In this document: one piece after another, positions 27,304 to 35,307 of the stretch
Position numbering within the stretch: the stretch's first letter is position 1
Layout of the letters: each line of letters begins with the position of its first letter
Assembly (NCBI GenBank): GCA_964406315.1
Contig: CAYORG010000005.1
Coordinates: 20,802-84,801, forward strand
Direction: 5' to 3'
Origin: an uncultured Bacteroidales bacterium
Lineage (GTDB): Bacteria; Bacteroidota; Bacteroidia; Bacteroidales; UBA10428
Length of the DNA: 64,000 nt
Position numbers and translations under genes: made by a program
Notes under the pieces: model-generated
The model's database searches: none
What the model was told of the DNA's origin: nothing
Seen by the model: the letters and a program-made list of their open reading frames with translations, nothing else

Positions 27304-30042
27304 CTATTTTTTCTGAAGTTTTTGAATGGTTTTTTTCAATTCAGCTTCTCTTTTTACATATTCAGACCGAAGTTTTTCATTTTCTGCAATCCGTTTGTGG
27401 AGGTCCTCCTGTATTGTCTGCATTTCTTCAAGATTTTGTCTTAATTCTTCCTCCTGGGCCAGCAATTCTTCATTTCTTTGTTTAATTTCCATCTCCATCT
27501 CCATCGATTTTGTCACGTCTTTGGAGATTCCATAAGTGCCAACGATTTCACCTTTCTCGTTGCAAAGTGGCATTTTGGAAGTGCTTACCCATGTAATTCT
27601 TCCGTCAGCATGGGTTTCTTTTTCAATTTTATCAACAATAGGTTTCCCTGTTTTAATGATTTTCATTTCATCTTCGAAAGCAGGTCTTGCATGCTCTTCG
27701 GTGAAGAAATCAAAATCGCTTTTTCCATATAGATCTTCCACTTTTTTCACTTTAAACAGCTTAGCCATAGATTTACTGACTTTGATAAACCTGCTTTCTT
27801 TGTCTTTGAAATAAATCGATTCTTTAGCATTGTTAAGCAAGGTATCCATAAGGGCTTTTTCCTGGACCAATTTGTTTTTTTGTCTTCCCAGTTCTTCCTG
27901 CACTGTCTGCATCTCTTCGAGATTTTGTCTTAATTCTTCCTCCTGGGCTAGCAACTCTTCATTCCTCTGTTTGACTTCCATCTCCATCTCCATCGATTTT
28001 GTAACATCTTTGGAAATTCCGTAAGTACCGACGATTTCACCCTTCTCATTATAAAGAGGCATTTTCGATGTGCTTACCCATGCGATTCTTCCGTCGGCAT
28101 GGGTTTCTTTTTCAAGTTTATCAATGATAGGTTTTCCCGTTTTAATGATGTTCATTTCATCTTCGAAAGCTGGTTTTGCATGCTCTTCGGTGAAAAAATC
28201 AAAATCACTTTTCCCATATAGATCTTCTACTTTTTTGACCTTAAATAGTTTTGCCATGGATTTACTGACTTTGATAAACCTGCTTTCCTTGTCTTTGAAA
28301 TAAATAGTCTCTTTGGCATTGTTGAGCAAGGTATCCATCAGTGCTTTTTCCTGTGCCAACTTGTTCTTTTGTCTTTCCAACTCTTCCTGTACCGTCTGCA
28401 TCTCTTCAAGATTTTGTCGCAACTCCTCATCCTGTGACTGCAGTTCTTCATTCCGTTGTTTAACTTCCTGTTCCATTTCAACGGCGTTGGTTATATCTTT
28501 TGATATTCCAAATGTTCCCACAATCTCACCCTTCTCATTGTATAATGGCATTTTGGAAGTATTCACCCATGTAATTCTTCCGTCGGCATGGGTTTCTTTT
28601 TCTCTTTTATCCAGGATGGGTTTTCCTGTTTTGATGATGTTCATTTCATCTTCAAATGCAGGTTTTGCATGTTCTTCGGTGAAAAAATCAAAATCATTTT
28701 TCCCATATAGATCTTCTACTTTTTTGACCTTAAAAAGTTTTGCCATGGAGTTGCTGGCTTTGATAAATCTGCTTTCCTTGTCTTTAAAATAAATAGATTC
28801 TTTTGCATTGACAAGCAAAGTATCCATGAGGGTCTTTTCCTGCGTCAATTCGTCTTTTTGTCGCTGCAATTCTTCCTGGACACTTTGCATTTCCTCCATA
28901 TTTTGCCTCAATTCTTCCTCCTGTGCATGCAATTCTTCAGTTTGTGCTTCCGACTGTTCTAGCATGAGTTTCATTTTATCTGTTGCAGATTGAATGGCAA
29001 TAGCAGATGCAATATTGTAGGCAAGTTTTTCAATAAATTCAATTTTATAATTTTCCAGTTTATGGAAAGAAGCTATCTCAATAACACCGAGTTTATTTTC
29101 ATCCTGGACGAGGGGTATGAAAACTATATTCTTTGGTGAACTTTTTCCCAAACCGGATTCTATTTTAGTATAGGTATCAGGTATGTTTTCCAACTCCATT
29201 GTCTTTCCTTCATTAAAACACGTTCCAATATATCCTTCCCCTGGTTTGAAGGTACTTTTTATCTTGGTCTGATCTGTTGCATATGAGTTCAGTACCTGCA
29301 AAGTATTTTTATCTTCATTTAAGAGGTAAATTACACCTGAATTGCCACTGATATAGCCTACAAGTTCATAGATAAGATGCTGTCCCAGCTTTTTCAGATC
29401 TTCCTTGTTTTTTGAGATAATATCTGAAAACTTTGACAGACCAACGGCTTGAAATTTAAGTTCTTCTTCTTTTTCAAACTTATCCTTATATTCCAGTTCC
29501 TTTTTTTCAAAGTCCATTTCGCGTTCTTTAAGAAGCGATTGGAGTTCTTTGTTTTGTTTCTTTATTTCTTTCTCACGATCTTTTATTTTTTCAACAATAT
29601 CCAGGTGAAACTTATAGGCAAATGGACTGACAAGTAATATTAGGATAAGTGTGAACCACCATTTTTGATAAAAGCGGATCTTCTTTGCAGTAACAGATTC
29701 TTTTTTTTCTGGTAAAGCAGTTAAATTTGCTTCATCACGAATGGTATCTGCAGTTTTTTTGGTTTCTGTCTGAATAAATCCTGAAGATGAGTCAATAAAA
29801 GCCGTATCCAAAGTCGTCTCAGTTATTACTGCAGATTCGACCTGCAGGTTATAGGAATCTGTTTCTGTGACGTTATCAGAAATTGACACATTCATTTCAT
29901 TGAATGGATCTTCTTCAAAAAGTATAGTATCCTGAAAATCTTGTGCCGATGTTGTATAGCTTATATATAGCAATACATAAAGAAAAATTATTTTAAGAGC
30001 TCTGTGATAAAAAACCATTGCCGGATATGTTTTTTGTTCCAC
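27304..30042 (-). CDS. Membrane-anchored sensor: short extracytoplasmic segment, TM, coiled coil, GAF domain, three coiled-coil+PAS modules; no recognisable output domain
   Basis: 912 aa. Signal/anchor, then a second TM helix (WWFTLILILLVSPFAYKF). GAF-like region around aa 215-350 (GYISGNSGVIYLL...GVIEIASF). Three 163-aa units follow, each EELRQNxEEMQxVQEEL plus a PAS-like core (SIYFKDKESRFIK...HADGRITWV...GEIVGTxGISKD). Confidence 0.75.
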   Translation of the reverse strand: MEQKTYPAMVFYHRALKIIFLYVLLYISYTTSAQDFQDTILFEEDPFNEMNVSISDNVTETDSYNLQVESAVITETTLDTAFIDSSSGFIQTETKKTADTIRDEANLTALPEKKESVTAKKIRFYQKWWFTLILILLVSPFAYKFHLDIVEKIKDREKEIKKQNKELQSLLKEREMDFEKKELEYKDKFEKEEELKFQAVGLSKFSDIISKNKEDLKKLGQHLIYELVGYISGNSGVIYLLNEDKNTLQVLNSYATDQTKIKSTFKPGEGYIGTCFNEGKTMELENIPDTYTKIESGLGKSSPKNIVFIPLVQDENKLGVIEIASFHKLENYKIEFIEKLAYNIASAIAIQSATDKMKLMLEQSEAQTEELHAQEEELRQNMEEMQSVQEELQRQKDELTQEKTLMDTLLVNAKESIYFKDKESRFIKASNSMAKLFKVKKVEDLYGKNDFDFFTEEHAKPAFEDEMNIIKTGKPILDKREKETHADGRITWVNTSKMPLYNEKGEIVGTFGISKDITNAVEMEQEVKQRNEELQSQDEELRQNLEEMQTVQEELERQKNKLAQEKALMDTLLNNAKETIYFKDKESRFIKVSKSMAKLFKVKKVEDLYGKSDFDFFTEEHAKPAFEDEMNIIKTGKPIIDKLEKETHADGRIAWVSTSKMPLYNEKGEIVGTYGISKDVTKSMEMEMEVKQRNEELLAQEEELRQNLEEMQTVQEELGRQKNKLVQEKALMDTLLNNAKESIYFKDKESRFIKVSKSMAKLFKVKKVEDLYGKSDFDFFTEEHARPAFEDEMKIIKTGKPIVDKIEKETHADGRITWVSTSKMPLCNEKGEIVGTYGISKDVTKSMEMEMEIKQRNEELLAQEEELRQNLEEMQTIQEDLHKRIAENEKLRSEYVKREAELKKTIQKLQKK
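27403..28941 (-). repeat. Intragenic tandem repeat, 3 full units of 489 bp plus a partial fourth
   Basis: The EELRQN motif recurs at residues 376, 539, 702 and 865, an exact 163-aa / 489-bp period. The plus-strand shadow ORFs ending at 27535 and 28024 carry the same peptide 489 bp apart. Units are roughly 85-90% identical in DNA by eye. Confidence 0.9.
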
Positions 30043-32908: not shown

Positions 32909-33199
32909 GTGGATACATTCAATACCACAAAAGAGGGATTGATTGTTATTGCTGAAGATTCTGTAATTGTATTTTATTCAGAGTATAAAATGAAAAATCT
33001 TAACCTTTATCGTTTATCGAAACAAGAAGTTGTCGAATTTTTCAGGGAATTGGTGCCTGAGTACAATAGCAATAATGACAACTGTAAATCTTTGAAAAAA
33101 ACGAGGCGCATTGAGGCTGAAAAATTGCTTGAAACAAGTTTAAACATTAATCTGGCAAAAAAATTGAAACCTTATATTAAAAATAATATACCAAAATAA
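32909..33199 (+). CDS. Hypothetical small protein (uncertain)
   Basis: 96-codon ORF starting with GTG, with an internal ATG at 32990. No recognisable motif. Retained only because the locus is otherwise empty. Confidence 0.25.
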   Translation: MDTFNTTKEGLIVIAEDSVIVFYSEYKMKNLNLYRLSKQEVVEFFRELVPEYNSNNDNCKSLKKTRRIEAEKLLETSLNINLAKKLKPYIKNNIPK

Positions 33200-33433
33200 A
33201 TTGTGCAGTTTTTAATTAATCTATGTTTTAATAAATAACATTATACATTGCTGCCTGTCATAAATAGCTCGCAAATATCAATTTATTTATATGTAAAAAA
33301 TGCTGCTTGAACCGAGGCGGCAATTCCAATTAACGTGTATAATTAATATACCATTCTTCCTCAGTCTTCTCTTCATCCTAAGTAAGATCTCTAGGCCTTA
33401 TTTTCGGTTTTTAGCCGATTTCACCACGACTTC

Positions 33434-34030
33434 CTATGATTTATCTCCTTCTTTTTTTACTTCGGTAAGATTTTTCTTTTCGTCACTTTTGGTTTTAGCT
33501 TTTGGCTTGGTTACAGGCTTTTTTGGTTGTTTTTTATCTTTGACTTTTTTTTCTGCCTTTTTTGCTTTTTCGGACTCTTCTTCTTTTTTTCCGGGCTTTT
33601 CTTCGGATTTATCAGATGCTTTTATTTTTTCTGTGCCGGGTTCTTTTTTTACTATTTCCTTTTCTTCTGCCGGTCTGACTTTTTTTGTATCAGGTTGCTT
33701 ATCTGTTTCTTTCCCTGTTTTTTCTTCTTTCTGCTTTTCACCTACAGGTTTTTCTTCCTGGTTTTTTTCCTGCACTTCTTCCTGCGCTTTCTTTACCTCT
33801 TGTTGCTCCTGTGTTTGCACTTCGTTTACTTCCTCCTGTGCTATAGATTTTTCAATTACAACTTCCTCTTTCTTAGGTGCGGTTTTCCTTGGAGTAACTT
33901 TTTTCCGAGATACTTTATTTGAAGAAATTAATGTTGACTTTTTTGTTTTTGCCTTTTTCCTTCTTCTTCTGACTCCGTAAGAACCATTAATGATTTTACC
34001 TCTTTTTGTTTTTTTATCGCCTTTACCCAT
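33434..34030 (-). CDS. bTHX-like ribosomal protein N-terminus with long K/E-rich low-complexity C-terminal extension
   Basis: The N-terminus MGKGDKKTKRGKIINGSYGVRRRRKK closely parallels Thermus Thx ([20 protein letters not shown]...). The remaining ~170 aa are Lys/Glu/Pro/Thr/Gln-rich with no stop codon. Confidence 0.7.
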   Translation of the reverse strand: MGKGDKKTKRGKIINGSYGVRRRRKKAKTKKSTLISSNKVSRKKVTPRKTAPKKEEVVIEKSIAQEEVNEVQTQEQQEVKKAQEEVQEKNQEEKPVGEKQKEEKTGKETDKQPDTKKVRPAEEKEIVKKEPGTEKIKASDKSEEKPGKKEEESEKAKKAEKKVKDKKQPKKPVTKPKAKTKSDEKKNLTEVKKEGDKS

Positions 34031-34197
34031 TTGTTAACTATTTTGTATTTCAGGTGGCCAAATGTAATACAATTTTTCTTTTGAAGAAAACTTAATTCAT
34101 AAGTGGTACATTTACAGTAATTTATAAACTTACTATTAAAAATCATTACGATTTAGTATATTTAAATAATTCATAACCTTTGAAAATAATTGGATTT

Positions 34198-35307
34198 ATG
34201 GACAGAAGAGATTTTATCAAAACAACAGGTACATTAAGTTCTGGTTTAGTTGCCGGTTTTTCTTTCATCTCTTGTAATCAGCCTGTTAATACTATGGCAA
34301 AATATTCAAAATACCGGGGATTTAATCTTCTTGCCAAATTCAGTGGTATGGGTCCCAGAAAACGATTTCAGGAAGAAGATTTTGAGATTATGGCTGAGTT
34401 GGGATTTGATTTTGCCCGGATACCAATGTCCTATTGGAATTGGGCAAGAGTTGATGACTGGTATGCAATCGATGAAGAAATATTCAAAGACATTGATGAG
34501 GTTGTTGAGTTCGGTAAGCAGTACAAAATACACATTAATTTGAATATGCACAGAGTCCCCGGGTACTGTATTAACAGGGGCGATTTGGAACCATTTGATT
34601 TATTTCATGATAGTGAGGCAAATATGCAAAAAGCTCTGGATGCAGTTGTTCACCATTGGAAGCTTTTTGCCGAAAGATACAAAGGGATATCAAGCGAACG
34701 GTTAAGTTTTGATCTGATCAATGAACCCCCTCATCTGAAAGAGGAAACCCGCTATATTGAAGTGGTTAAAGCACTGGTTGAGGGGATTCGCGAAAAAGAT
34801 CCTGAAAGATTAATTGTTGCTGATGGCAAAGATGTGGGAAGAACCCCTGTGTATGGTATTGTTAATTTGAATGTTGTACAAAGTACAAGGGGATATGATC
34901 CGATGAGTGTAAGTCATTATACTGCCAAATGGGTACCGGAGGATACATTTCAAACATTTAATGTTCCTACGTGGCCTCTTAAAGGTAACGATGGGAAAAT
35001 ATACGATAAAAAATATCTTAAAGAAAACCTGATAAACAGATGGCAACCTTTAGTAGATAAAGGAGTACAGGTTCATGTCGGGGAATGGGGTTGTTATAAT
35101 AAGACACCTCATCATGTTGCCTTGGCATGGATGGAAGATCTGCTTTCCCTTTGGAAAGAAGCAGGGTGGGGGCATGCTTTGTGGAATCTTAAAGGAGATT
35201 TTGGCATAATGAACAGCAATCGTCCGGATGTAAAATATGAAAGTTACAAAGGACATAAGCTGGACAGAAAGATGCTCGAGTTACTGAAAAAATATATGAC
35301 TGACTGA
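34198..35307 (+). CDS. GH5 glycoside hydrolase with twin-arginine (Tat) signal
   Basis: MDRRDFIKTTGTLSSGLVAGFSF is Tat-like. FDFARIPMSYW, the acid/base block DLINEPPH and the nucleophile block HVGEWGCY. I placed the start at ATG 34198 instead of the TTG at 34180. Confidence 0.8.
   Translation: MDRRDFIKTTGTLSSGLVAGFSFISCNQPVNTMAKYSKYRGFNLLAKFSGMGPRKRFQEEDFEIMAELGFDFARIPMSYWNWARVDDWYAIDEEIFKDIDEVVEFGKQYKIHINLNMHRVPGYCINRGDLEPFDLFHDSEANMQKALDAVVHHWKLFAERYKGISSERLSFDLINEPPHLKEETRYIEVVKALVEGIREKDPERLIVADGKDVGRTPVYGIVNLNVVQSTRGYDPMSVSHYTAKWVPEDTFQTFNVPTWPLKGNDGKIYDKKYLKENLINRWQPLVDKGVQVHVGEWGCYNKTPHHVALAWMEDLLSLWKEAGWGHALWNLKGDFGIMNSNRPDVKYESYKGHKLDRKMLELLKKYMTD

Follow-up and report, generated by a model that had tools for sequence, protein, structure and literature searches.

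bTHX is usually described as a 26-residue peptide of thermophiles. In the head of the 30S subunit, the protein is seated in an rRNA cavity and touches h41 and h42 (PMC5737520). Chloroplast bTHXc has 47 aa compared with 27 aa in Thermus bTHX, and its C-terminal extension has been found to reach uS13c (PMC5737520) or uS7c (preprint 10.64898/2026.07.03.736309). The same 2026 preprint reports that the bTHXc extension is conserved among land plants and states that it is absent from bacteria (10.64898/2026.07.03.736309). Here, we describe a bacterial bTHX with a C-terminal tail and compare it with these systems and with its own relatives.

The window analysed is a stretch of 64,000 nucleotides from an uncultured Bacteroidales bacterium. 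Its minus strand carries a reading frame of 198 residues that starts with MGKGDKKTKRGK... and also holds the K/E-rich peptide quoted in the original prediction (Table 1). The NCBIfam equivalog model TIGR04560 (ribo_THX; cut-off 26 bits) matches residues 1–26 across all 26 of its profile positions, scoring 48.5 bits with the full protein and 53.1 bits when residues 1–30 are used alone. The Pfam family Thx (PF17070) gives 27.0 bits (E = 4.4e-6, profile positions 1–26 of 27), marginally below its gathering score of 29.7, and this Pfam match is precomputed for many long-tailed homologs. The Thermus-specific model NF011339 (PRK14753) gives 25.4 bits against a cut-off of 58. In a PDB sequence search, residues 1–26 pair with Thermus Thx over its whole length, 17 of the 26 being identical; the plant mitochondrial and chloroplast bTHX chains align more weakly to the same core. 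The signature MGKGD...RGK...G.YG...R.KK is shared over these residues with Thx of Thermus thermophilus (PDB 1FJG chain V). The original prediction had read the first ~27 residues as essentially the whole of bTHX, and both the profile match and the end-to-end alignment bear this out. Only one in-frame codon lies 5′ of the ATG before a stop (open frame 199), which makes the ATG at 34030 the start codon. The whole genome, which is 98% complete, contains one bTHX match. The gene is a genuine bTHX and the sole copy in the organism.

Table 1. Features of the bTHX locus (window positions) and charged extensions on other translation proteins of the same genome, G000 (contig positions).
Feature	Position	Strand	Basis and remarks
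Complete bTHX gene	33434..34030	-	198 codons + TAG stop; gene identical in 6 independent assemblies
bTHX core, residues 1–26, presumed rRNA-buried peptide of the 30S head	33953..34030	-	TIGR04560 match, Thermus Thx alignment
Basic linker, K/R/S/T-rich, residues 27–54, net ~+12	33869..33952	-	Charge profile; conserved with the closest congener
Acidic E/Q/V-rich segment, residues 54–92, predicted single long helix	33755..33871	-	AlphaFold2
Mixed K/E/P/T polyampholyte, residues 93–160, predicted disordered	33551..33754	-	Charge profile, AlphaFold2
Basic K/P-rich, histone-H1-like stretch, residues 161–180, net +9	33491..33550	-	Charge profile
Mirror ORFs, F/S/L-rich	33300..33980 (226 aa), 33527-33922 (131 aa), 33685-33846 (53 aa)	+	Antisense by-products, not genes
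Candidate Bacteroidota-type -7 promoter box, TAcaTTTG	34059..34066	-	Read by eye; ends 28 nt before the ATG
Weak terminator-like imperfect hairpin, then U6	33295..33379	-	RNA fold; ~55 to ~140 nt past the stop codon
96-aa ORF	32909-33199	+	GTG start
GH5 cellulase-family gene	34180-35307	+
912-aa protein	27304-30042	-
bS16 (L130)	G000:C22:349-1209		287-aa open frame, core ~70 aa; charged extension
bL17 (L131)	C10:30074-30895		274 aa; charged extension
uS2 (L132)	C1:35259-36128		290 aa; charged extension
bS1 (L133)	C81:4116-6386		757 aa; N-terminal charged extension

A major difference from Thermus lies beyond the core. Thermus Thx (26–27 aa) ends where the tail starts here, and in our protein 172 further residues follow residues 1–26. 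The uninterrupted extension of ~170 residues that had been claimed is present: the reading frame runs through 198 codons with 0 stops, where the two alternative sense frames contain 11 and 16. When the tail is shuffled by mononucleotides 100,000 times, the frame is left open in only 5 cases. G occupies 37% of first codon positions and 10% and 17% of second and third positions. Purines make up 75% of the coding strand (54% A, 21% G), and the AT skew of the + strand reaches -0.76. This strand skew and the large mirror ORFs had both been noted beforehand, and the latter appear on the + strand because the coding strand is purine-rich; in public assemblies, the gene called is the 198-aa one only. 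An assembly indel or a lost stop could in principle have joined a short bTHX to non-coding purine-rich DNA, and the strong purine skew does somewhat lower the frequency of stops; however, stops are abundant in the other sense frames and the codon periodicity is clear. A protein identical over all 198 aa is recorded on 21 contigs, which come from different JGI metagenomes and from Logan assemblies of different runs. Six of these loci were examined, and each has the gene DNA of the window without a change, together with the same neighbouring genes. This agreement among six independent assemblies, which differ in sample and assembler, excludes an indel or frameshift artefact for practical purposes. 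Tails equally long are found in many other genomes, and the orthologs do not show a stop after 30–40 codons. In 62 distinct long-tailed homologs, with tails of 73–209 codons, the alternative frames contain 5.5 and 9.4 stops per 100 codons. The artefact reading is already largely refuted, and its remaining chance is negligible; the tail is coding sequence, and its frame is open beyond what composition leads one to expect.

The tail is dominated by charged residues (K 29%, E 19%). Residues 28–198 contain 52 K+R and 38 D+E, giving a net charge of +14, and only 21 of these 171 residues are hydrophobic. The charge profile places the acidic block at residues 55 to ~100. AlphaFold2 on the single sequence predicts a helix at residues 54–92 with a pLDDT of 90–95 and coil elsewhere with a pLDDT of ~50–60; the tail is thus predicted to be disordered apart from one helix. 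Helix over-prediction is frequent for charged E/K/Q stretches. Judged as a single α-helix of the ER/K type, in which alternating E and K/R stabilise a long isolated helix, the predicted helix is net acidic, and the corresponding segment of the closest congener contains a proline. Searches of the protein against Pfam and NCBIfam return no family except Thx and RPS31 up to E = 1, and the tail is unmatched. A profile of histone H1-like or bacterial H1-like nucleoid proteins does not match the lysine-rich region, the likeness of which is compositional only. We also looked for tandem repeats as a source of the tail and found no array, just weak micro-repeats of 7–13 nt.

We compared the protein with the bTHX systems of known structure. 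The binding site on the 30S head is presumably the same as that of Thermus Thx. Plant bTHXc (PSRP4) and bTHXm likewise consist of a bTHX core and a C-terminal extension; in addition, the plant mitochondrial chains match at internal residues (~45–74 of 94–98 aa) and therefore carry extra N-terminal sequence as well. The chloroplast extension is ordered on the ribosome, conserved and ~20 residues long, whereas the tail here is ~8 times longer, unconserved and predicted to be disordered. No Bacteroidota bTHX chain is among the PDB matches, the F. johnsoniae 70S paper leaves THX unmentioned, and no structure or paper was found that shows bTHX residing on the ribosome in this phylum, so that ribosomal residence in Bacteroidota is proposed by homology. 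On these grounds, we infer that the protein is incorporated into the 30S subunit. The 26-residue basic core would bind the rRNA cavity atop the head (h41/h42), as in Thermus and plant organelles, the C-terminus would leave the cavity near uS13/uS7, and the tail would extend into the solvent in the order basic linker, acidic helix, mixed K/E/P/T segment and H1-like basic K/P stretch. A tail projecting from the 30S head, as originally proposed, is consistent with what has been published on the structures of bTHX in Thermus and of bTHXc in chloroplasts. The protein could instead be non-ribosomal, such as a nucleoid-associated, H1-like or other RNA- or DNA-binding protein with a THX-like N-terminus. 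The K/P-rich basic blocks, which resemble histone-H1-type tails, and the missing Bacteroidota ribosome structure with bTHX would agree with this; however, the core is the genome's single, full-length and well-scoring bTHX, and it is far better conserved than the tail, as expected of a buried rRNA-binding peptide. We therefore regard a non-ribosomal role as highly improbable.

We then compared the length of bTHX among relatives. In the same genus, 17 of 24 genomes have a bTHX match, and the 12 complete congener genes extracted encode 37–183 aa. In other families of the order, bTHX ranges from 38 to 168 aa. Of 401 genomes sampled evenly across the phylum, 78 have a match; their open frames are mostly 37–97 aa long, and five exceed 100. 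The species-representative genomes, a sample biased toward tail-like matches, include many MAGs labelled Bacteroidales, Lentimicrobiaceae or Rikenellaceae with forms of 100–236 aa. A size of ~26–50 aa might be taken as typical of bTHX; here the protein has 198 aa, and the family in Bacteroidota spans 33–236 aa, the range of the 114 complete genes from the fetched loci. A core-only search of 1.84 billion representatives gave lengths of mostly 40–125 aa, with few >150. Its top match, the 485-aa P0013, was rejected as spurious, being part of a kinase in which glycine loops recur. A word-indexed homolog search yielded no more than 11 proteins, as no words are common to the tails, and the genome searches told more. 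The long-tailed bTHX proteins of uncultured Bacteroidales-type MAGs are alike in the core, in the K/E/A/P/T-rich disordered tail and in being encoded by a stand-alone single gene, but their tails cannot be aligned between genomes; the one described here is near the upper end in length and poorer in alanine (5%) than most. Long forms in JGI records are annotated as 'bTHX' or '30S ribosomal protein S31'. The original statement that bTHX is normally tiny thus holds for Thermus and fails for this Bacteroidota lineage. Since forms of 37–236 aa are common in relatives, the 198-aa protein lies at the long end of a continuum and is not a one-off fusion; it is extreme in length yet ordinary for its lineage. 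As a separate observation, the genus contains two core subtypes: cores ending in GSYGKTRP.K belong to proteins of 37–39 aa (loci L006, L007, L010 and L012), and cores ending in GSYGVRRR(R/K)KK, with one GSYGILRPRKK, are followed by tails in proteins of 44–198 aa (L001, L008, L011 and L014–L019). This association could be plain phylogenetic signal.

The behaviour of the tail was followed against the closest congener (G010), the bTHX of which has 183 aa. The upstream neighbours share 85–91% protein identity between the two genomes. Codons 1–68 of bTHX are 91% identical at the DNA level and show 5 synonymous and 8 non-synonymous differences, all 8 of the latter in residues 27–68. From ~codon 68 on, the identity of the tail DNA falls to 0.60, compared with 0.58 for shuffled sequence, although both tails are open, similar in length and the same in composition. 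The homology (L128; G010:C1, 8449-8800 against window 33434-33840) ends within bTHX at ~codon 63–68 and is not resumed downstream, where glycosyltransferase-like genes in G010 replace the genes for the 96-aa ORF, DUF308 and the sulfatase family. The variable tail thus starts at a break in synteny. With flanks ~90% identical and a tail that cannot be aligned, the tail and the downstream synteny must have been replaced or scrambled between two genomes that are still close in evolution. Across the genus alignment, nothing is conserved past ~residue 30. Constraint on composition and not on sequence is our best reading of these comparisons.

Two other readings of this behaviour have to be weighed. 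The main rival is nearly neutral expansion, in which an exposed C-terminus and slippage-prone A-rich DNA would give a tolerated, functionless low-complexity tail that runs away in length and wanders by expansion and truncation. Such a dispensable tail would account equally well for the sequence that cannot be aligned and for the spread of 37–198 aa inside a single genus, the short-tailed congeners evidently fare well, and the excess of non-synonymous over synonymous differences in codons 1–68, with all 8 confined to linker residues 27–68, points the same way. Against this, a frameshift would meet a stop within ~10–18 codons, and yet all 62 distinct long-tailed genes keep tails of the same composition; the tail also has no tandem-repeat array that would indicate recent slippage. 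Neutral expansion is thus possible, though we do not consider it probable. The second reading is a specific regulatory appendage, which might recruit mRNA (in the Shine–Dalgarno-independent initiation of Bacteroidia) or factors, promote condensation or hibernation clustering, or tether the ribosome to the nucleoid by way of the H1-like basic blocks. Basic blocks at residues 27–54 and 161–180 do flank the acidic helix, and the chloroplast extension contacts uS13c or uS7c near the inter-subunit/tRNA side of the head. There is also a precedent in the disordered region of Bacteroides thetaiotaomicron Rho, which phase-separates and changes activity (PMC10284900, PMC13269538); the phase-separation role is demonstrated for Rho and is only an analogy for the ribosomal tails here. 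However, the genus shares no motif past ~residue 30, and close relatives lack the tail (37–44 aa forms). The original prediction had suggested that the tail could affect mRNA or factor recruitment, condensates or nucleoid association. The extreme turnover in sequence and variation in length argue against any sequence-specific role, and a dedicated regulatory function seems quite unlikely. Conservation of composition without sequence instead favours a generic role, and from these comparisons the tail is most likely a generic flexible charged appendage on the ribosome surface.

Charged extensions are also found on other translation proteins. We scanned the genome for K/E-rich windows, and bS16, bL17, uS2 and bS1 were each confirmed by Pfam (Table 1). 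Their extensions are, like the bTHX tail, low-complexity and K/E-rich, and are attached to conserved RNA-binding cores in the same genome. The scan also returned a 958-aa ORF with a K/E-rich N-terminal region, which we take to be IF2. In every relative with a match, the bS16 open frame is long (163–330 aa). The frame lengths of bS16 and bTHX are correlated with a Spearman coefficient of 0.58 (n = 21), uncorrected for phylogeny; this covariation suggests a lineage-level pressure and so speaks against purely neutral expansion, but a shared mutational bias could also cause it. The bTHX and bS16 tails of the same genome show no similarity (E = 0.42) that would point to a shared origin. Charged, disordered extensions are thus a habit of this lineage's translation apparatus. 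One could go further and regard the co-varying tails on bTHX, bS16, bL17, uS2 and bS1 as jointly forming a lineage-specific polyampholyte 'brush' on the ribosome surface that would tune ribosome–ribosome or ribosome–RNA interactions (condensation, hibernation clustering, cytoplasmic fluidity, or capture of A-rich leaders in Shine–Dalgarno-independent initiation), with the bTHX tail as its longest element relative to the core; we hold this collective function to be rather doubtful. Two other charged proteins were seen in the genome. One is a 229-aa frame (L136, G000:C47:13321-14007) that has no Pfam family and is H1-like and very rich in lysine (KKxK) in its C-terminal half, and the other is a DUF5606/DUF6852 protein with a K/E tail (L135, C98:1561-2145).

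The bTHX gene stands alone among unrelated genes, with a GH5 cellulase upstream and the 96-aa ORF, a DUF308 gene and a sulfatase-family gene downstream. The consensus of the -7 motif of Bacteroidetes promoters is established, and a candidate box of this type precedes the gene (Table 1); the leader that follows it is A-rich and lacks a Shine–Dalgarno sequence. A sigma-70 promoter scan gave nothing exceeding the shuffled expectation. Past the stop codon, the terminator-like hairpin lies in a region with an RNA fold z-score of just -1.2 for the whole 161 nt, and no minus-strand terminator was found inside the bTHX gene. Among known RNA elements, the 1.4 kb around the gene contain no r-protein leader, and a sub-threshold snoRNA match was judged to be chance. 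The 96-aa ORF is convergent with bTHX and has no recorded Pfam match; gene calling includes it, and independent assemblies carry it unchanged, but it is absent from the G010 locus. The GH5 gene is divergent from bTHX, and its N-terminus resembles a twin-arginine or lipoprotein signal (RRDFIK...SC); the G010 homolog is apparently shortened to 270 aa. Elsewhere in the window, a 912-aa protein has an N-terminal membrane segment, a GAF-like region and three near-identical tandem modules, each composed of a coiled-coil-like EELRQNLEEMQ stretch and then a PAS-like domain; no obvious output domain is seen.

Considering these comparisons together, the bTHX tail is probably a ribosome-anchored, fast-evolving disordered polyampholyte that projects from the 30S head as a generic charged appendage constrained in composition. 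Selection would act on the existence of the tail and on its charge-rich, hydrophobe-poor composition and not on its sequence, and the tail would therefore turn over very fast by substitutions, indels and replacement, with its length drifting over ~10–200 residues among relatives. The basic blocks may touch RNA weakly and non-specifically, and the whole chain may act as a steric and electrostatic brush.

We found no paper that describes long bacterial bTHX tails, and long-tailed bTHX is already in public databases under that name. In many uncultured Bacteroidota, bTHX carries extensions as much as eight times as large as the core, and the one described here is among the longest. Several translation proteins of the same genome share the habit of charged extensions. 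Taken singly, the case is ordinary within its lineage, and it is of value for the wider question of charged tails on Bacteroidota ribosomes. If these tails sit on ribosomes, the 30S head would have an altered surface chemistry in a large group of bacteria in which translation initiation is already unusual.
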